A DNA stretch of 32,000 bases, from assembly GCF_017876815.1 (NCBI RefSeq), contig NZ_JAGIOS010000002.1, positions 510,001 through 542,000 on the forward strand, written 5' to 3'. The DNA is from Sinorhizobium meliloti. Lineage in GTDB: Bacteria > Pseudomonadota > Alphaproteobacteria > Rhizobiales > Rhizobiaceae. Position numbers and translations under genes: made by a program. Of the stretch, positions 750-11,290 are shown piece by piece (the first letter of the stretch is position 1; each line of letters starts with the position of its first letter). A model generated the notes under the pieces. It was not told the origin of the DNA. It saw only the letters and a list, made by a program, of their open reading frames with translations, and did not search any database.

Positions 750-1850
750 TCAGGCCTCGACGCGCCTGCGCCCGCGCGTGTCGTCCTCCACCTGCTCCAT
801 TTCCCGCCTGTTGTGCCGGATCGAAGACCAGAGCGAAAGACCTATGAGGCCTGCCCCGCCGAGGCCGGTAATGACTTCGGGAATGTGGATCAGCGTTTGG
901 AAGTACATGACCACGGAAAGGATCAGGATAGCGTAGAAGGCGCCGTGCTCCAGGTAGCGGTATTCACTGAGCGTGCCCTTCTCGACCAGCATGATCGTCA
1001 TGGAGCGGACATACATCGCCCCGATGCCGAGTCCGATGGCGATGATGAAAAGGTTCTGGGTCAAAGCGAAAGCGCCGATGACCCCGTCGAAGGAGAAGCT
1101 GGCGTCGAGCACTTCCAGATAAAGGAAGGCCCCGAAGCCCCCCTTCGCCGCAGCGCTCATCGTCTGCTGCGAGGCGTCGAGCAGACCGCCGACCACCTCG
1201 ACCGCCAGGAAGGTGAGGAGGCCGTAAACGCAGGCATGAACGAAGATCACGGCTTCTTCCGCTTCGAGCAGCCTCGAAAAGCCGAGTATGAGCGCAAGCA
1301 CGAAGGCAATCTCGACGCCCTTGATGGTCGCAAAGCGTGCCATCCGGCTCTCCAGCCATGCGATCCAGTGCACGTCCTTCTCATGATCGAAGAAGTAGGT
1401 GAGACCGACCATCATCAGGAACGTGCCGCCGAATGCGGCGATCGGCAGATGCGCCTCGTGCATGATCCGGGAATATTCCTCGGGCCGGGCCGCGGCGAGA
1501 ATCACGGCATCGATCGGACCGATACCCGCGGCGATGACCACGATCAGCAGCGGAAAGACGATGCGCATGCCGAAAACGGCGATGAGGATGCCCCAGGTCA
1601 GGAAGCGTTGCTGCCAGACGGGAGTCATGTCCTTGAGCTTGTTGGCATTGACGATGGCGTTGTCGAAGGACAACGAGATTTCCAGAACGGCAAGGACGGT
1701 GCAGATGAAGAACACCGTCATCATTCCGCCGATGGTGCCGGTCGACTGCCAGCCGAGCCACCCGCCAAGCAGAAGCCCGGCAGCCGTAACGATGAACGCC
1801 CATTTGAAATAACCGAGGGCGGTTGTCTGTGCGCTGGATCCAGTCATGGG
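750..1850 (-). CDS. DUF475 / TerC-like integral membrane protein
   Basis: Multi-TM ORF with the LEISLSFDNAIVNA signature typical of DUF475/TerC-type proteins. Start chosen at MTGSSAQ, with GGAGGGGAGG 8 nt upstream. The longer ORF (to 1934) would read through a terminator hairpin. Confidence 0.8.
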   Translation of the reverse strand, partial: PMTGSSAQTTALGYFKWAFIVTAAGLLLGGWLGWQSTGTIGGMMTVFFICTVLAVLEISLSFDNAIVNANKLKDMTPVWQQRFLTWGILIAVFGMRIVFPLLIVVIAAGIGPIDAVILAAARPEEYSRIMHEAHLPIAAFGGTFLMMVGLTYFFDHEKDVHWIAWLESRMARFATIKGVEIAFVLALILGFSRLLEAEEAVIFVHACVYGLLTFLAVEVVGGLLDASQQTMSAAAKGGFGAFLYLEVLDASFSFDGVIGAFALTQNLFIIAIGLGIGAMYVRSMTIMLVEKGTLSEYRYLEHGAFYAILILSVVMYFQTLIHIPEVITGLGGAGLIGLSLWSSIRHNRREMEQVEDDTRGRRRVEA

Positions 1851-1906
1851 CGAACCTCCCCTCCACGCGCTGTGGTAGCGTTGGCGAAAGGGAGATTTCC
1901 GGAGAC

Positions 1907-1937
1907 AAAAAAACGCACGGCCGTATGGGCACATGCG
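1907..1937 (-). terminator. intrinsic-terminator-like hairpin plus U7 inside the 5' leader of the DUF475 gene
   Basis: Minus strand reads CGCAUG(U)GCC-cauac-GGCCGUGCG followed by UUUUUUU, about 55 nt upstream of the ATG at 1850. Confidence 0.4.
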
Positions 1938-2137
1938 TGAGGCATGAGATCAGTTTTCATGGTAGCTATATCCGCCGGCGTGACTTGCTGGCGGTACCGA
2001 CATCACGAGAGCGCCGTAAACTCTCGCCAGAGGGGCCCGGCACCAATGTTCATCCCGCATTCCGATGTCCAAGAGCGGGACGCCTCTTACTTAGCGATGC
2101 CGCGCCTTGCGTCAAGGGGCAGCCGCCTGCTTGCGGC

Positions 2138-2163
2138 GGAACCAAAAGCCCTTCTCCCAAGTT
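2138..2163 (+). promoter_or_regulatory. EcfG/RpoE2-like promoter candidate (GGAAC-N17-AGTT)
   Basis: GGAAC at 2138-2142 and AGTT at 2160-2163, about 39 nt upstream of the first DUF982 ATG (2202). Confidence 0.35.
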
Positions 2164-2201
2164 TCATTTCCAACCGGCAACAACCCGCGAGGCTAGGCGT
2201 C

Positions 2202-2453
2202 ATGCATTGTTTCTGGTGGGATAAGAGTGTCGAATTGGAACTGGGAACCGAGGGCAAATATCGCGACGTGAAAAGCACGCGCGAGGCCGTAGAATGCCTG
2301 CTGCAGCGGTGGCCGCGCCGGGATGGACCGGCGCTGGCCGCAGCCAAGCGCGTATGCCTTCAGGCTCTGGATGGCAAGGTAAAGACCGAAAGAGCCCGCA
2401 GGGCCTTTATAAAGGCAGCGGAAGAGGCACATATTTCGATCCGCAGCCATTAG
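2202..2453 (+). CDS. DUF982 domain-containing protein (paralog 1)
   Basis: 83 aa with the W..V...A..CL..WP...G...A...C...ARxAFxxAAxEA pattern shared by all four paralogs in this window. ATG at 2202 inside the 1944..2453 ORF. Confidence 0.8.
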   Translation: MHCFWWDKSVELELGTEGKYRDVKSTREAVECLLQRWPRRDGPALAAAKRVCLQALDGKVKTERARRAFIKAAEEAHISIRSH

Positions 2454-2562
2454 ACCAAGACAATTTTAGGTTCAAACGCGTCGAAAGACGCGGTCGATCG
2501 AGTTTCGGAGTGGGACGCGGGAGGCGCCGTGCTGGCGGCTTCGGATTGGGCGAGGAAGAACG

Positions 2563-2844
2563 ATGTACGAGATCCCATGGAGCAAGCCCGTCAATATCAA
2601 CATGCTCGACGGCAGGTGCCGCACGGTTGTCGGCCCGCTCGACGCGATGCACTGCCTCCAAAGCGAATGGCCGGTCCGGGACGGCGCCTATTACGGCTGC
2701 GCCATACGCGCCTGCAATGCGGCGCTCAAGCGCAGAAAGAGGCCGGAAGACGCGCGGGCTGCCTTCATCGCCGCTTTGCGGGAAGCCTTTCTGACGGTCG
2801 TGCCGCTGCAGGAGGAAGGTCATGGACCCCGGCCCCTGGAATGA
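2563..2844 (+). CDS. DUF982 domain-containing protein (paralog 2)
   Basis: 93 aa with the same motif pattern. GAGGAAGAAC lies upstream of the ATG. Confidence 0.8.
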   Translation: MYEIPWSKPVNINMLDGRCRTVVGPLDAMHCLQSEWPVRDGAYYGCAIRACNAALKRRKRPEDARAAFIAALREAFLTVVPLQEEGHGPRPLE

Positions 2845-3070
2845 ATGCGTCCCCGTGCGGATGCCCGATGATCCGCAGATCCACATGGTGTCGAACACCC
2901 GTCAGGCGGTCGAGTTGCTGACGAAGCGCTGGCCGGTGAGCCACGGCCAGGCTTACCAGGCGGCAATCGACATCTGCATGGCGGTGCTCGAACGCGAATC
3001 CCCGGCTTACGTCGCGCGGGCGGCCTTCGTCGCTGCCGCGAAAGAGGCGCAGGTCAATATCGTAAGCTGA
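2822..3070 (+). CDS. DUF982 domain-containing protein (paralog 3)
   Basis: 82 aa with the same motif pattern. GGAGGAAGG lies upstream of the ATG. Overlaps paralog 2 by 23 nt. Confidence 0.8.
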   Translation: MDPGPWNECVPVRMPDDPQIHMVSNTRQAVELLTKRWPVSHGQAYQAAIDICMAVLERESPAYVARAAFVAAAKEAQVNIVS

Positions 3071-3175
3071 CCCGTATTGAGCGGGAGGAGAACCGAATGC
3101 GTTTCCCGCACGCATGCGCACCGATTCAACCTGCCTACGGAGCGTTGCGCGGCTGACGGAGCTTGGCGTCGAATG

Positions 3176-3200
3176 GGAACTCTTCGCCTGCTTGCGTGTT
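3176..3200 (+). promoter_or_regulatory. EcfG/RpoE2-like promoter candidate (GGAAC-N16-TGTT)
   Basis: GGAAC at 3176-3180 and TGTT at 3197-3200, about 31 nt upstream of the ATG at 3232. Confidence 0.35.
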
Positions 3201-3671: not shown

Positions 3672-3696
3672 GGAACCAAAATCCGCCGCATCCGTT
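3672..3696 (+). promoter_or_regulatory. EcfG/RpoE2-type promoter, perfect consensus GGAAC-N16-CGTT
   Basis: GGAAC at 3672-3676, a 16-nt spacer, then CGTT at 3693-3696. It starts 6 nt after the upstream stop codon and about 70 nt upstream of the ATG at 3770. Confidence 0.6.
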
Positions 3697-5033: not shown

Positions 5034-5318
5034 GTGCCGACGCCTGTCACTTAACGAGTAAAAAAGCGCCGAGACGCGCTGCGGGCGGCCGGGTTGCGCC
5101 CCGTGCAAATATGGATTCCGGATAACCGCCGCCCAGGTTTTGCCGACGAGTGCCGGCGCCAGGCGGAGGCGGTCGCCTCGGCTGATGCTGCCGCCCGCGA
5201 CCTGGATGCCTTCATTGACGTCGCTCTGTCCGTGATGCATGAAGCGTGGCGATCTCGTTACCATCGCCCTGCCGGTGGACTTCGGGAAGCCCCGGCCTGC
5301 CCTGATCATTCAGGCTGA
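5034..5318 (+). pseudogene. MazE-like (DUF3018) antitoxin, apparently disrupted
   Basis: The conserved RVKKRRDALRAAGLRPVQIWIPDNRRPGFADECRRQ region is in frame with a GTG at 5034. An in-frame TAA at 5052-5054 interrupts it. The only uninterrupted ORF starts at TTG 5094 and runs about 80 nt into the toxin gene instead of ending at the ATGA junction at 5239-5242. Confidence 0.5.
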
Positions 5319-5556
5319 TTTGTTCGAGGACACCGGCACGGTGACTGTGCTGCTGGTGTCGGAAGCGTTGCTCGATGCCCCTCTGTTGTGGCCAACGGTA
5401 CGACCGACGCCGGAGAGTGGGCTTGGTAACCGTCACAGATAATGATCGACAAGGCCATGTCGGTGAAACGAGAAAAACTCGGCCCGCCTTTCGGCCGGCT
5501 AGACGACGAAACGATGCTTTCCGTCGCTCGCTCGCCGCTTATTTGGTCTTGCCTGA
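5239..5556 (+). pseudogene. MazF/PemK family toxin, frameshifted
   Basis: The N-terminal part (MKRGDLVTIALPVDFGKPRPALIIQADLF...) stops at 5442. The conserved continuation PSQIMIDKAMSVKREKLGPPFGRLDDETMLSVAR lies in another frame, consistent with a 1-nt loss near 5424-5428 (ggtaaccg). The tail may be shifted again at the cgctcgctcgc run (~5527). The stop at 5554-5556 is inferred. Confidence 0.6.
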
Positions 5557-5654: not shown

Positions 5655-7483
5655 ATCGGCATAGGGGGCGGCCGTTGTGACCGCGCCCCTGCCACACCAC
5701 CCGGCATGCGGGTCCGCACCGGGCGGTTCGAAGAGTTGAGGTCAGGCGAGGCGGGGGATACGGAGGGCATCCATCCACCTGAGGGTTAGGACCGAATTGA
5801 GCAACATGCCGCTGTTGCGCCACCATCTGCGGCTGTTGACCGCGATCTGCCGTGCCACTTCGGGCTTGGCGCCCTTGGCAAGCAGGGCCTTGTAGGTGGT
5901 CTTGCCACGCTTCCAGTGCTTGAGCTGGATCGCGCGCACCCGGTGACGCATCCACTCCTCCAGCTCCTTGAAGAGCCTTGGAGTTTGTGCCAGCCGGAAG
6001 TAGGCTTTCCAACCCAGAACATAGACGCGCAGGCGCTCGGCCACTTCCGCCATGCTGCGCCCGCCCGAACGGCGGGTCAGTTGCCGGACGCGGCGCTTGA
6101 ACGCCTTGAGCGGCTTGTCGGCCACCCGCCGCTTGACCGCGCCATCCCGGCCCCGCCAGAAGCTGAAGCCGAGGAACTTGCGGCCAAACACAGTGGTAAC
6201 CGCGCTCTTGCCCTCGTTGATCGTCAGGTGCAGCCGTCCGTAAAGCCGCCGCAGAAGCGCCATGACCCGTTCGCCCGCCTTGCGACTGCCAACGTAAACG
6301 TTGCAGTCGTCCGCATAGCGCACGAAGCAATGGCCCCGGCGTTCCAGTTCCTTATCCACCTCATCGAGCAGCACATTGGCCGGAAGCGGCGACAGCGGCC
6401 CGCCTTGCGGCGTGCCCATCACCCGCTCCTGGACCACGCCATGGTCCATGATGCCGCTGTTCAGATAGGCCCGGATCCGGCGGATAACCCGCTTGTCCGA
6501 TATCCGTTTGCTGAGGCGGTCGATCAGGATGTCGTGGTTGACCCGGTCGAAGAACTTCTCAGGTCGACGTCCACGACAATCCGCCGGCCCGACTGCACAA
6601 GGGATTGCGCCGCAAGCACGGCCCCATGCGCACTACGGCCCGGCCGGAAGCCGTGGCTGTGCTCGCTGGAAGTGGGATCAAGGAGCGGCTGCAGCACTTG
6701 CAGCAGCGCCTGCTGGATCAAGCGATCCGTCACCGTCGGGATGCCGAGCTCGCGCTCGCCCCCATCCGGTTTCGGGATCGTCACCCGTCGCACCGGCATC
6801 GGCCGGTACGTTCCCGCCAGAACCCGTTCGCGGATGCCAGGCCACGCCGTGCGCAGATGAGCCGCGGTCGCCTCGATGGACAGACCGTCCGCACCAGCCG
6901 CGCCCTTGTTGGCCTTCACCCGTTTCCAAGCTCTTTGCAGGTTCTCGCGCGCCAGGGCCGCTTCCAGCAGCCCCGGCCCTGTGCTGCGCGTCACAGCGCG
7001 GGCAGGTCGCTTCATCGCTGCCCGGTTCAGACAGGGCTTCACCCTGTCTCCCCCCGGACCGCCCCGCTCTCGCGGGCATCTGATGCCTGGCTTCCTGCAT
7101 CGCTATGCCTCAAGCACTCCTCTTCGTTCGGTCCTTCGCCGCGGATACGGCTACTACGACCTCTGCTGACTTCTCGCTCCGGCTCGACACCGTCGCCCTT
7201 TCAGGCGCAAGGCGAGATCTCCCCGGGTAAGAACGCATTCCTTCACCGCACCACCGCCGGATCTACGCCGCCGCCCCTTGGTCACGAGAGCTTCGCGGTT
7301 CATGGCCCGCTCGCCCTGGTCGGCACCGCCTCATATCCGGTTCTTGTTCATCGGCACGCGGTTTACGCTCCACGCTTCCTCCCCACGCTCGGTCACCCTC
7401 ACGCAGTTGCGCTTCACTTCACTCGCTGTGACCAGCTCGTGGCGGGACTTCCACCCGCAGGAATGCGCCCATGCCGGGCGCAC
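5655..7483 (-). mobile_element. bacterial group II intron, class C-like (~1.83 kb)
   Basis: On the minus strand the 5' end reads GTGCGCC at 7483, exactly 10 nt after a terminator hairpin plus TTTT. It contains an En-less RT/maturase ORF, a domain V-like hairpin (~5696-5727), and a domain VI-like stem. The 3' end is placed at ...GAU (~5655) and is good to about +/-10 nt. Confidence 0.8.
5742..7015 (-). pseudogene. group II intron reverse transcriptase/maturase, frameshifted
   Basis: The RT domains are split between ORFs 6524..7042 and 5742..6449. At ~6560 the sequence reads gac ctg aga agt tct, where gac ctg gag aag ttc ttc (DLEKFFDRVNHD) is expected, so one G is missing. YADD is present (FVRYADDCNVYV). 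There is an X/maturase tail and no En domain. The restored product would be ~424 aa. Confidence 0.8.
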
Positions 7484-7879: not shown

Positions 7880-8182
7880 ATGGCAGTTGAGTTTGGTGAA
7901 CGAACCGTGGTCCGGGGCGGCGAAGTAGTCGCGTTTCCTCTGGCGGCACGCGCCAGCGATGTCGACCGCTGCGCGCGTGAACTCGACCGGATACATGGGG
8001 CCGCTGCAGTCCGCTACTGGAAAAGCGAATGCCGGAAGCTCGCCGAGCAGCTTTCCGCACTGGGTCTTCGGGAGGACGAGATCCGAAACGAGGTCCTCGC
8101 GTTCCAGGCGGAAGTCCAGATCGCTATCGCCGGACGCTATCAGGAGCCGCCGGCCCGGAACCGCTCCGATAGCCGCCCATGA
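7880..8182 (+). CDS. DUF6074-like hypothetical protein
   Basis: 100-aa ORF (VVAFPLAARASDVDRCARELDRIHG...FQAEVQ) that resembles small Rhizobiales DUF6074 proteins. Family assignment is from memory. Confidence 0.55.
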   Translation: MAVEFGERTVVRGGEVVAFPLAARASDVDRCARELDRIHGAAAVRYWKSECRKLAEQLSALGLREDEIRNEVLAFQAEVQIAIAGRYQEPPARNRSDSRP

Positions 8183-8225: not shown

Positions 8226-8486
8226 TCACCCGGTCCAGCTGTGTACGCTGAACTGCGCTTCCTCGGCGGCCTTAATGAAGGCGGTGCGTGCGACATCGGG
8301 CTCGTCATCCCCGTCGATCACCCGCTCGCAGGCCGCGAAGGCATCGCGCTTTGCTTCTCCGTCGGCAATCGGCCAGTGATTTTTGAGGCAAAGAAAAGCG
8401 TCACGGGTGCTTTGTACCCGGAGGACACGGTTTTCACCTGCCTCCAGAATCACCGCTTCGCTCCAGAGACGATCCTGCGTCAGCAT
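8226..8486 (-). CDS. DUF982 domain-containing protein (paralog 4)
   Basis: 86 aa with the same motif pattern as the 2202-3070 triplet (CLKNHWPIADGE...ARTAFIKAAEEAQ). Its start overlaps the stop of the CBS gene (ATGCTGA). Confidence 0.8.
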   Translation of the reverse strand: MLTQDRLWSEAVILEAGENRVLRVQSTRDAFLCLKNHWPIADGEAKRDAFAACERVIDGDDEPDVARTAFIKAAEEAQFSVHSWTG

Positions 8487-8956
8487 GTCGACATTCCTTC
8501 AAGCTGGGTATCGACGGGGGCAGGCCGGTTGATCCCCTCGAGAACGAGACCGCCTAGTTCCGGATTGGCCCGGCTGATGTCCCCAAGAGCCACGATGCCG
8601 GCCGCGTGTCGCTTCCCGTTGACGACGACGAGACGTCGGATTCGCAGGTTGTGCATCTTCTGGGCGGCAAGCAGGAGGCTGTCGTCCTCCTCGCAGGATT
8701 CGGCGGCGACCGTCATGAACTCGAACACGGCCGTCGAACTGGACAGCCCTTGTGCGACCACGGAGGTGACTATGTCCCGATCCGTGACGATCCCGAGGAT
8801 CGTTCCGACACCCGGCGTTTCCACAGGCACCGCGCCAACCCCTGTCTCAGCCATTAGCCGGGCGACGGATTGCGCCGTATCGGTGGGCGAAACGGTGAAA
8901 ACCTGTCGAGACATTACATCCCGAACACGGATCATCTTGTCTTCATAGCCGGCCAT
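8480..8956 (-). CDS. CBS domain-containing protein
   Basis: 158 aa with tandem CBS motifs (VRDVMSRQVFTVSP...GIVTDRDIV; ...RRLVVVNGKRHAAGIVALGDI). Start at MAGYEDK, with GGGAGGAG 8 nt upstream. Confidence 0.85.
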   Translation of the reverse strand: MAGYEDKMIRVRDVMSRQVFTVSPTDTAQSVARLMAETGVGAVPVETPGVGTILGIVTDRDIVTSVVAQGLSSSTAVFEFMTVAAESCEEDDSLLLAAQKMHNLRIRRLVVVNGKRHAAGIVALGDISRANPELGGLVLEGINRPAPVDTQLEGMSTC

Positions 8957-9146
8957 CGATGAGACTCCTCCCATTGATCGAGGCCGGAACTGCCACTTCA
9001 TCTGCCGTCGACTTCTTGAGAGTGAGGTCGACCCGGTAAGGGACAATAACCTGAGGTTGCCAGGTATTCCGCCCAGATTTCTTCGGATTTGGATTTTCAG
9101 GCGGCCGGGCAAATTTCGGACGCTTCTGTTTCAGTCGAACGCGCAC
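8943..9146 (-). CDS. candidate small basic protein (67 aa), GTG start
   Basis: GTG at 9146 is preceded by AAGGGAG with a 6-nt spacer. It lies about 50 nt downstream of the perfect EcfG-type promoter and overlaps the CBS start by 14 nt. No family recognised, and GC3 is only moderate. Confidence 0.35.
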   Translation of the reverse strand: MRVRLKQKRPKFARPPENPNPKKSGRNTWQPQVIVPYRVDLTLKKSTADEVAVPASINGRSLIDGRL

Positions 9147-9203: not shown

Positions 9204-9228
9204 AACGCACGAAGGTAGAAGGGGTTCC
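9204..9228 (-). promoter_or_regulatory. EcfG/RpoE2-type promoter, perfect consensus GGAAC-N16-CGTT (minus strand)
   Basis: On the plus strand, AACG at 9204-9207, a 16-nt spacer, then GTTCC at 9224-9228. It lies just downstream of the stop at 9253 and upstream of the sORF-CBS-DUF982 string. Confidence 0.6.
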
Positions 9229-9971: not shown

Positions 9972-9996
9972 AACTGGTGACGTCGCTTTTGGTTCC
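9972..9996 (-). promoter_or_regulatory. EcfG-like promoter candidate (GGAAC-N16-AGTT, minus strand)
   Basis: On the plus strand, AACT at 9972-9975 and GTTCC at 9992-9996. It lies 43 nt upstream of the DUF1236 ATG (9929). Confidence 0.4.
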
Positions 9997-10169
9997 CGTG
10001 GGCGGGCGGCGGAGTTGCCGGCATATCTCCGCGTGAATGGCCGTATGATCAGGTGCCGGATTGATGCGCGCCCGGAAATATCCCCAGAGCCTCAGGAACC
10101 AAAGGGCCGGAAAGGCATTTCCTAACGTCACCTGGAGAAATCATCATAGGCAGAAGGGCAATATTCGAC

Positions 10170-10691
10170 ATGCCTGCTATCGGCGGTCACGCATCGCGAC
10201 AATCACCGTTGCTTGAGGAGCAAGTCGTCGATCTGATTCCCGCTCTGCGGGCGTTCGCGCGTACGTTCACGTCAGCGTCGTTCGAGGCCGACGACCTCGT
10301 GCAGGAGACATTGCTCCGGGCGCTGAGAAGCATCGAGCAGTTCGAGCCCGGCACGAGTCTCAAGTCCTGGCTGTTCACGATCATGCGCAATGCGTTTCGC
10401 ACGCAGTACAAGATTCGCACGCGGGAAAGCCCGGGGAGCACCAATTGCGCCGAATTGCCGATTCCAACCGCGCCGTCGCAGGAGTGGTCCGTCCTCAACG
10501 GCGAGCTACGCAGCGCGCTTGGGGCTCTTTCACCGGAGCACCGCGAAGTCCTCGTGCTCGTTGCCGGGTTCGGAATGAGCTATAAGGAAGCCGCTGACAT
10601 ATGCGACTGCGCGATCGGTACGATCAAGAGCCGGCTCAGCCGGGCACGCGACGAACTGACGGCGCAAATGCACGGAAATCCGCTGAACTGA
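10170..10691 (+). CDS. ECF (sigma-70 family) RNA polymerase sigma factor, EcfG-like
   Basis: Region 2 (DDLVQETLLRALRSIEQFEPGTSLKSWLFTIMRNAF) and region 4 (LSPEHREVLVLVAGFGMSYKEAADICDCAIGTIKSRLSRAR) are both present. Its position next to MFS and cyoABCD recalls S. meliloti rpoE5; this is from memory and unverified. Confidence 0.9.
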   Translation: MPAIGGHASRQSPLLEEQVVDLIPALRAFARTFTSASFEADDLVQETLLRALRSIEQFEPGTSLKSWLFTIMRNAFRTQYKIRTRESPGSTNCAELPIPTAPSQEWSVLNGELRSALGALSPEHREVLVLVAGFGMSYKEAADICDCAIGTIKSRLSRARDELTAQMHGNPLN

Positions 10692-11101: not shown

Positions 11102-11290
11102 TTACTTGTCCGAGACGTGTTCCTTCTTTCCCTTGCGCTTGGTCGAGGCCATTTCCTCGAGTTCCTTCTCGGTCATGGACTCTTCCATGCCCTTAGAGGC
11201 GCCCTTGAGTTCGCTCTTCTTCTTCTCGCCTCGTTTGGCGGCAAGGGCCGCGCCGGCGGCCTTCTGCTGCGCCTTCGACTTTGCAGGCAT
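11102..11290 (-). CDS. DUF3008 family protein
   Basis: MPAKSKAQQKAAGAALAAKRGEKKKSELKGASKGMEESMTEKELEEMAS is typical of DUF3008. AAGGAGAAAGGAG lies upstream of the ATG at 11290. Confidence 0.75.
   Translation of the reverse strand: MPAKSKAQQKAAGAALAAKRGEKKKSELKGASKGMEESMTEKELEEMASTKRKGKKEHVSDK

Follow-up and report, generated by a model that had tools for sequence, protein, structure and literature searches.

Four maintained DUF982 genes in an RpoE2 stress island of Sinorhizobium meliloti pSymB

A 32-kb stretch of DNA from Sinorhizobium meliloti (hereafter the window, with positions counted from its first nucleotide) harbors four genes for small proteins of the DUF982 family (Pfam PF06169), three of them head to tail and the fourth on the opposite strand. 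The window belongs to pSymB; its first 12 kb is 99 to 100% identical to pSymB of many strains, and positions 1900 to 3200 match strain Rm41 with 100% and strain 1021 with 98.6% identity; in strain 1021, the counterparts of copies 1, 2, 3, and 4 are SMb21469, SMb21470, SMb21471, and SMb21480, respectively. All four genes already carry the GenBank label "DUF982 domain-containing protein," given by the Prokaryotic Genome Annotation Pipeline (PGAP). The four open reading frames (ORFs) had been attributed to DUF982 in an earlier reading of the letters alone (the original prediction), and comparison with the PF06169 hidden Markov model (HMM) bore this out, with scores of 84 to 95 bits against a gathering threshold of 22.2 bits and near-full-length matches for all four copies (positions 1 to 71 of a 73-position model). 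A six-frame HMM search of the 32-kb window recovered exactly these four copies and no fifth one. The distance of 5 kb between copies 3 and 4, also remarked on earlier, is correct for this window but is not typical of the locus: it is made up in part of a group II intron and a MazE/MazF remnant, and other Sinorhizobium species, whose orthologous loci do not have this extra DNA, show a gap of about 2.5 kb.

As seen by comparing the four proteins, residues W6, V10, A29, L33, W37-P38, G42, A48, and C52 are invariant, as is, in the C-terminal part, the motif A65-R66-x-A68-F69-xx-A72-xx-E75-A76. The same positions are 82 to 100% conserved in 138 diverse DUF982 representatives, so the W...V, CL..WP...G, Cys, and ARxAFxxAAxEA motifs first described for the four copies are the signature of the whole family. 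Atu1219 of Agrobacterium tumefaciens, whose structure is known, has the same full-length HMM match and the same W, WP, G, C, and ARxAFxxAxxEA residues, and the window copies are ordinary members of PF06169 with no essential difference. Both overlaps between neighboring genes that had been reported are present in the sequence. The frames of copies 2 and 3 share 23 nt (2822 to 2844), where copy 2 ends in a 13-residue C-terminal tail overlapping copy 3, and a GGAGGA ribosome-binding site precedes copy 3. The start of copy 4 overlaps the stop of the adjacent CBS-domain gene by 7 nt (ATGCTGA, 8480 to 8486). The coordinates of these genes and of the surrounding features are collected in Table 1.

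Table 1. DUF982 genes, promoter motifs, and other features of the window
Feature	Position	Strand	Description
DUF982 copy 1 (SMb21469)	2202-2453	+	83 aa, pI 9.5; PF06169 94.7 bits, E 3e-27
DUF982 copy 2 (SMb21470)	2563-2844	+	93 aa; PF06169 90.4 bits, E 7e-26
DUF982 copy 3 (SMb21471)	2822-3070	+	82 aa; PF06169 92.4 bits, E 2e-26
DUF982 copy 4 (SMb21480)	8226-8486	-	86 aa, pI 4.7; PF06169 84.1 bits, E 6.5e-24
Stand-alone CBS-pair protein gene (SMb21481)	8480-8956	-	158 aa; Pfam CBS, two stretches, E 1e-22
Unannotated small ORF	8943-9146	-	67 aa, GTG start, pI 11.3; between SMb21482 and CBS gene
EcfG/RpoE2-type motif GGAACCAAAAGCCCTTCTCCCAAGTT	2138-2163	+	64 nt before ATG of copy 1; motif scan
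EcfG/RpoE2-type motif GGAACCCCTTCTACCTTCGTGCGTT	9204-9228	-	Precedes small ORF-CBS-DUF982 operon; motif scan
EcfG-type motif	3176-3200	+	Precedes low-affinity iron permease gene
EcfG-type motif	3672-3696	+	Precedes SMb21473-SDR
EcfG-type motif	9972-9996	-	Precedes DUF1236 gene; mapped RpoE2 promoter (PMC3616915)
EcfG-type motif	10095-10119	+	Precedes rpoE5; mapped RpoE2 promoter (PMC3616915)
rpoE5 (SMb21484)	10170-10691		Extracytoplasmic function (ECF) sigma gene near NepR/RsiA-like ORF
DUF475/TerC gene	750-1847	-	Divergent from copy 1
terC RNA motif (Rfam RF03067)	1988-2048	-	63.9 bits
MazE-like antitoxin gene and truncated PemK/MazF toxin gene	5094-5442	+	Toxin 67 aa, model positions 1-68 of 109
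Group II intron	~5700-7400	-	Rfam D1-D4 domains 7131-7402; reverse transcriptase/maturase split (5742-6449, 6524-7042)
DUF6074 gene	7880-8182	+	Convergent with copy 4; Pfam PF19551, 95 bits
DUF3008 gene	11102-11290	-	

The DUF982 expansion is ancient, and every copy has been maintained. The four paralogs are only 30 to 47% identical to one another, compared with 66 to 100% between orthologs, in agreement with the original view of an old paralog expansion rather than a recent duplication. Across Sinorhizobium, copies 1, 2, and 3 have one-to-one orthologs with identities of 83 to 99%, 75 to 100%, and 66 to 95%, respectively; copy 3 is the fastest evolving, and the S. fredii and S. glycinis loci yielded no ortholog of it. 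Copy 4 is 76 to 96% identical to its orthologs in Sinorhizobium and 64% identical to that in Shinella, and it always lies directly after a CBS gene. The ratio of nonsynonymous to synonymous substitution rates (dN/dS), calculated against S. medicae, S. fredii, and S. saheli, was 0.06 to 0.18 for the four copies (0.08 to 0.13 for copy 1; 0.06 to 0.18 for copy 2). Overall, the low identity between paralogs, the one-to-one orthologs, and the low dN/dS values indicate that the expansion is older than the genus and that the copies are under purifying selection.

A motif scan of the window found nine GGAAC-N15-18-GTT sites, where 2.9 were expected; within the first 11 kb, six of these sites lie ahead of genes (Table 1). 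In the motif ahead of copy 1, GGAACCAAA and GTTT are invariant in seven Sinorhizobium species, with a variable spacer and upstream sequence; in the consensus motif ahead of the CBS operon, GGAACC and GCGTT are invariant in five Sinorhizobium species and in Shinella. The same scan found no promoter motif belonging to copy 2 or copy 3. Therefore, the EcfG-like promoters originally ascribed to the DUF982 genes hold, as conserved footprints, for copy 1 and the CBS operon, but not for copies 2 and 3 individually. Since such motifs precede several genes, the stretch from 2 to 11 kb is a compact island of the RpoE2 regulon, and it has been conserved throughout the genus. Its other members include SMb21472 to SMb21474, SMb21481 to SMb21484, and rpoE5, all of them published RpoE2 targets.

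Published arrays of RpoE2-overexpressing cells agree with this assignment. The log2 fold changes listed were 0.68 for SMb21469 and 0.92 for SMb21471 (PMC6180224 Data Set S1), 1.32 to 1.42 for SMb21470, and 3.28 to 3.50 for SMb21480 (PMC6180224 Data Set S1; PMC3616915), with adjusted P values below 1e-5 for SMb21480 and for SMb21469 to SMb21471 (PMC6180224). For comparison, the CBS gene SMb21481 reached 3.96 to 4.17 (PMC6180224 Data Set S1; PMC3616915), and SMb21472, SMb21473, and SMb21474 reached 4.0, 3.6, and 3.0, respectively (PMC6180224 Data Set S1). These values mark copy 4 as a strong target of RpoE2 and the tandem trio as a weak one. The stress-regulon membership that had been proposed for the family members is thus supported for the window copies by both the arrays and the conserved motifs. 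Like other genes of the RpoE2 (EcfG-type, ECF15) regulon, they combine GGAAC-N16-(C)GTT promoters with induction by RpoE2 overexpression. They differ from typical members in the weak response of copies 1 to 3, whose promoter has the nonconsensus -10 element AAGTT, and in that neither the copy 1 promoter nor the CBS-operon promoter has a motif among the published table entries listed.

The position of the copy 1 promoter also bears on where this gene starts, because PGAP calls a protein of 135 aa and the original prediction one of 83 aa. When seven species were aligned, conservation extended over the GGAACCAAA box, the GTTT box 16 nt on, a GAGG ribosome-binding site, and an ATG-CAY-TGT-TTC-TGG start, and the sequence upstream of GGAACCAAA was unalignable. 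Furthermore, copy 1 orthologs of other species have been annotated with 83 aa, and the supposed N-terminal extension contains, on the opposite strand, an Rfam terC RNA motif (Table 1) as well as a published transcription start site (TSS) at approximately 2081 (-). Although this TSS was classed as antisense to SMb21469, it more plausibly corresponds to the leader start of the divergent DUF475/TerC gene. Since conservation begins at the promoter, the orthologs have 83 aa, and the extension is filled by the terC RNA and the TSS, the shorter start is to be preferred. A separate published antisense RNA, SMb_asRNA_2949, starts opposite copy 2 (TSS3066, ~2692, minus strand) and covers approximately 2596 to 2692; its sigma-70-like promoter, CTTGAG-N17-GTATGG at 2702 to 2730, is intact in the window. 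This RNA may regulate copy 2 or copy 3.

Copy 4 lies in a different arrangement. Upstream of it and of the CBS-pair gene, we identified an unannotated small ORF that shares its last 14 nt with the start of the CBS frame. By tblastn, this ORF was present in every Sinorhizobium locus (72 to 98% identity) and in Shinella (57% identity over 42 aa), where a 68-aa gene is called directly before CBS-DUF982; its dN/dS was 0.10 to 0.25, and it had no Pfam match. The CBS protein SMb21481 is 60% identical to its Shinella counterpart, which likewise precedes a DUF982 gene, and the translational coupling of the CBS gene and copy 4 is conserved in both genera. The conserved EcfG motif and the overlapping frames thus give an operon in the order P(EcfG), small ORF, CBS, and DUF982. 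Small ORFs also occur upstream of other DUF982 loci, and these are unrelated to one another and to SMb21482. On a Shinella-like metagenome contig (L042, 96 to 5940), the orthologous small ORF-CBS-DUF982 operon is accompanied by another CBS gene, by a DUF3008 gene, and by the gene for a 1,241-aa PAS/GAF hybrid histidine kinase; a DUF3008 gene is found in the window as well.

Stand-alone CBS-pair proteins can act as nucleotide sensors through partner proteins, as is the case for c-di-AMP-binding CbpB/DarB with Rel and for HRP1 of the Mycobacterium tuberculosis dormancy regulon. SMb21481 is likewise a small, CBS-only, stress-induced protein, and its gene is translationally coupled to that of a small putative partner. 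DUF982, however, is unrelated to Rel.

The structural character of DUF982 was approached through copy 1, the sole copy modeled, on which the fold result rests. Its AlphaFold 2 model (predicted local distance difference test [pLDDT], 79) has a beta-hairpin, a three-helix bundle, and a C-terminal strand, and it superimposes on 2KPQ, the structural genomics nuclear magnetic resonance structure of Atu1219, with a template modeling score of 0.74 and a root mean square deviation of 1.9 Å. In a Foldseek search with this model, 2KPQ was the sole match in the Protein Data Bank (PDB), and there was none in BFVD; likewise, a profile search of PDB sequences gave 2KPQ as the only significant match, those to YjgA (E 0.12) and cytochrome c3 not being significant. 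Among the 138 representatives, Ala, Leu, Trp, Phe, and Cys predominate at the conserved positions, and judging from their spacing, these positions would be the packing core of the helices; conserved residues of polar character are R66 and E75, both on helix 3. The isoelectric point (pI) varies across the family from 4.6 to 10 (median, 6.7), so a shared nucleic-acid-binding role, which we had considered, is unlikely. A conserved core combined with such a pI spread fits a conserved scaffold with diversified surfaces. By eye, with no predictor run, no obvious signal peptide or membrane segment was seen in the four sequences.

The family comprises some 1,600 clusters at 50% identity (1,605) and, in the genome-contig and plasmid collections searched, is restricted to genera of the Hyphomicrobiales. 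Nearly all members in the best 150 of the 1,605 clusters are stand-alone proteins of 80 to 110 aa. The natural fusions among these 150 are DUF982-DUF982 proteins and a single fusion to a different domain, a 168-aa protein (P0144) in which a copy 4-like DUF982 domain is joined to a DUF2934 motif. Literature searches by family name, Pfam accession, Atu1219, and locus tag (SMb and SM2011) yielded no functional study, only a domain census from 2005 and papers on unrelated subjects. DUF982 has been described as overrepresented in plant-associated Proteobacteria (PMC554113).

The family-wide figures were obtained with ORFs called by a crude heuristic. On this basis, two to four adjacent same-strand DUF982 copies occur in 30 to 38% of the loci. 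When the family was divided into 61 subfamilies (clusters at 70% identity), a GGAAC-N15-17-GTT motif lay within 130 nt upstream in 17 of them, compared with 1.2% of random windows from the same loci (odds ratio, 32; P ~1e-18). Genes of stress type (BON, Transgly_assoc, WrbA-like, CinA, and Usp) are found beside DUF982 in unrelated loci; clustering of the neighbors in 38 genome loci gave no partner common across genera, only lineage synteny. RpoE5-like and NepR-like ORFs were seen beside DUF982 in the syntenic Sinorhizobium locus and in 0 of approximately 85 other loci. CBS genes accompany the copy 4 subfamily only. The proximity of rpoE5 and the RsiA-like ORF, which the original prediction took as a functional clue, is a matter of Sinorhizobium synteny, and we rejected it as such a clue.

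An aspect that the original prediction missed is the carriage of DUF982 by prophages. DUF982 genes were found on 42 IMG/VR prophage contigs (L054 to L095), and in many of these loci, one to four tandem copies have the reverse orientation to genes for a DnaB helicase, a RuvC-like resolvase, a DNA methyltransferase, and proteins known from PHROGs only. Arrays of this kind are seen, for example, in L057 (4683 to 5234) and L082 (4962 to 6132). The GC content at third codon positions (GC3) of the prophage DUF982 genes is below that of their neighbors, and several have a GGAAC-N16-CGTT motif of their own. In addition, a Pseudorhizobium locus (L049) contains five DUF982 copies in a phage-like region. 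About eight of the IMG/VR matches are at the very edge of the predicted prophages and could be host flanks. No DUF982 match was obtained in PHROGs, PADLOC, or BFVD, nor in 50,697 INPHARED phage genomes searched by tblastn with copy 4 as the sole query. In layout, own promoter motif, and differing codon composition, many DUF982 genes elsewhere thus resemble prophage morons. The four window genes differ in that they lie outside any prophage, among DUF475/TerC, iron permease, SDR, CBS, and DUF1236 genes, and the only mobile elements nearby are the group II intron and the MazE/MazF remnant. The latter forms a unit of its own and is missing from the loci of other species; with no PADLOC match and no adjacent toxin gene, the window copies did not appear as a defense or toxin-antitoxin array.

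These results show the four genes to be maintained members of an RpoE2 stress island. In the explanation that we favor, and to which we give about an even chance, they encode cytoplasmic protein-binding modules of approximately 80 aa, which would work in pairs or small complexes. Copy 1 would head a weakly RpoE2-responsive unit on which copies 2 and 3, translationally coupled to each other, are probably carried, and copy 4 closes a three-gene operon that shows translational coupling and strong induction by RpoE2. DUF982 itself, having no evident catalytic or nucleic-acid-binding signature, would serve as a protein-binding module. The tandem arrays, the DUF982-DUF982 fusions, and the conserved overlap of copies 2 and 3 suggest that these proteins function in pairs; copies 2 and 3 would probably do so as a heterodimer. 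Copy 4 would probably be a stoichiometric partner of the putative nucleotide-sensing CBS protein, perhaps together with the basic product of the small ORF, and could serve the stress response as an adaptor or output.

Several observations weigh against this interpretation. The interactions it invokes are predicted ones, and a single-sequence AlphaFold 2 model of a two-domain fusion had a pLDDT of 59, too poor to define an interface. The coupling to a CBS protein, to which the original prediction gave weight, is real for copy 4 in Sinorhizobium and Shinella but limited to the copy 4 subfamily, and a paralogous RpoE2-dependent CBS operon on pSymB, SMb21442-41, has neither a DUF982 gene nor the small ORF. 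On the regulatory side, the published induction of copies 1 to 3 is just 1.6- to 2.5-fold, none of the published TSS entries listed lies downstream of the copy 1 motif, and TSS3077, at the 5' end of SMb21481, is approximately 75 nt downstream of the expected start with no motif assigned. Moreover, 44 of the 61 subfamilies have no EcfG motif near the gene, and the frequent carriage by prophages could point to another primary role.

That other role is the substance of the main rival, according to which DUF982 is primarily a moron family of prophages that acts between phage and host, for example, in superinfection exclusion, anti-defense, or the adjustment of prophage behavior to host stress, and the pSymB copies are descendants domesticated long ago. 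The 42 IMG/VR loci, with their opposite-strand copies amid phage genes, lower GC3, and, on several copies, EcfG-type motifs, and the five-copy Pseudorhizobium region all speak for it. We nevertheless regard it as unlikely, as the phage and defense collections named above gave no match (in INPHARED, to copy 4 as the query), the edge-located viral matches may be host DNA, no toxin or defense partner is adjacent, and the window copies sit in nonphage, genus-wide synteny under strong purifying selection. A related but broader proposal, also rather unlikely in our estimate, is that DUF982 proteins are small oligomeric adaptors spread by temperate phages in the Hyphomicrobiales, placed under host EcfG control and tied to host stress physiology. 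If so, copy 4 could be the effector arm of a nucleotide-sensing CBS protein, and the family could link prophage behavior to the host general stress response, constituting a new class of general-stress effectors or of lysogenic-conversion modules. The modulator idea of the original prediction can be applied to the EcfG-NepR-PhyR partner switch, which occurs across Alphaproteobacteria: DUF982 proteins might, for example, bind RpoE5 or RpoE2, the anti-sigma factors RsiA, or the anti-anti-sigma factors RsiB and so modulate the stress response by feedback. Their genes are RpoE2 dependent and lie 1.7 to 8 kb from rpoE5 and the RsiA-like ORF, EcfG promoters on them would provide a feedback architecture, and the duplicated switch components of S. 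meliloti could match several paralogs (PMC6180224 and general background). However, because the sigma/NepR proximity is lineage synteny, seen in no non-Sinorhizobium DUF982 locus examined, this suggestion loses its main argument. Besides, DUF982 resembles NepR, PhyR, or anti-sigma domains neither in sequence nor in fold, its occurrence in some Hyphomicrobiales only contrasts with the much wider occurrence of the switch, and RpoE5 has no known regulon to modulate, since its overexpression altered one gene only in the published results listed. Direct modulation of the switch is, in our opinion, distinctly improbable.

The conserved cysteine raises the question of a thiol redox sensor or a small redox chaperone. 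Cys52 is conserved in 94% of the 138 representatives, expression depends on a stress sigma factor, and redox-related genes (WrbA/FMN reductase and SDR) are neighbors in some loci. Yet this is a single conserved cysteine, and neither a CxxC nor a metal-binding motif is present. Its place in helix 2 is one turn away from Ala48, which is invariant and an apparent core position, and the second domains of the natural tandem fusions do not have Cys52. A redox function is thus very improbable. Finally, the weak induction of copies 1 to 3, the rapid evolution of copy 3, and its apparent absence from the S. fredii and S. glycinis loci might be read as signs of redundant, decaying, or miscalled ORFs. 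Every copy, however, matches the Pfam model over its full length and has an intact ribosome-binding site, a dN/dS within 0.06 to 0.18, and one-to-one orthologs across Sinorhizobium, which leaves hardly any room for such an explanation.

As described above, the genes themselves were already annotated, and their RpoE2 dependence is already contained in published supplementary tables. The present analysis adds a corrected start for copy 1, a conserved small ORF that had escaped annotation, two conserved promoters, and, for the family as a whole, the enrichment of EcfG motifs and the association with prophages. Most RpoE2/EcfG-dependent genes of rhizobia have no known function, and it is therefore unclear how the general stress response protects the cell. 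In this setting, DUF982 has the advantage of being a compact family with a solved structure and four conserved copies in a model symbiont. The small ORF-CBS-DUF982 operon predicts a complex, the coupled copies 2 and 3 predict a heterodimer, and the prophage link predicts phenotypes in lysogens, while both promoters are open to mutational tests.

One further neighbor of copy 4 deserves mention. The convergent DUF6074 gene is found directly downstream of DUF982 in three unrelated subfamilies, those of the window, of L031 (6268 to 6540), and of L050/51 (5282 to 5584 in L050), and this recurrence may reflect a functional pairing of the two families.

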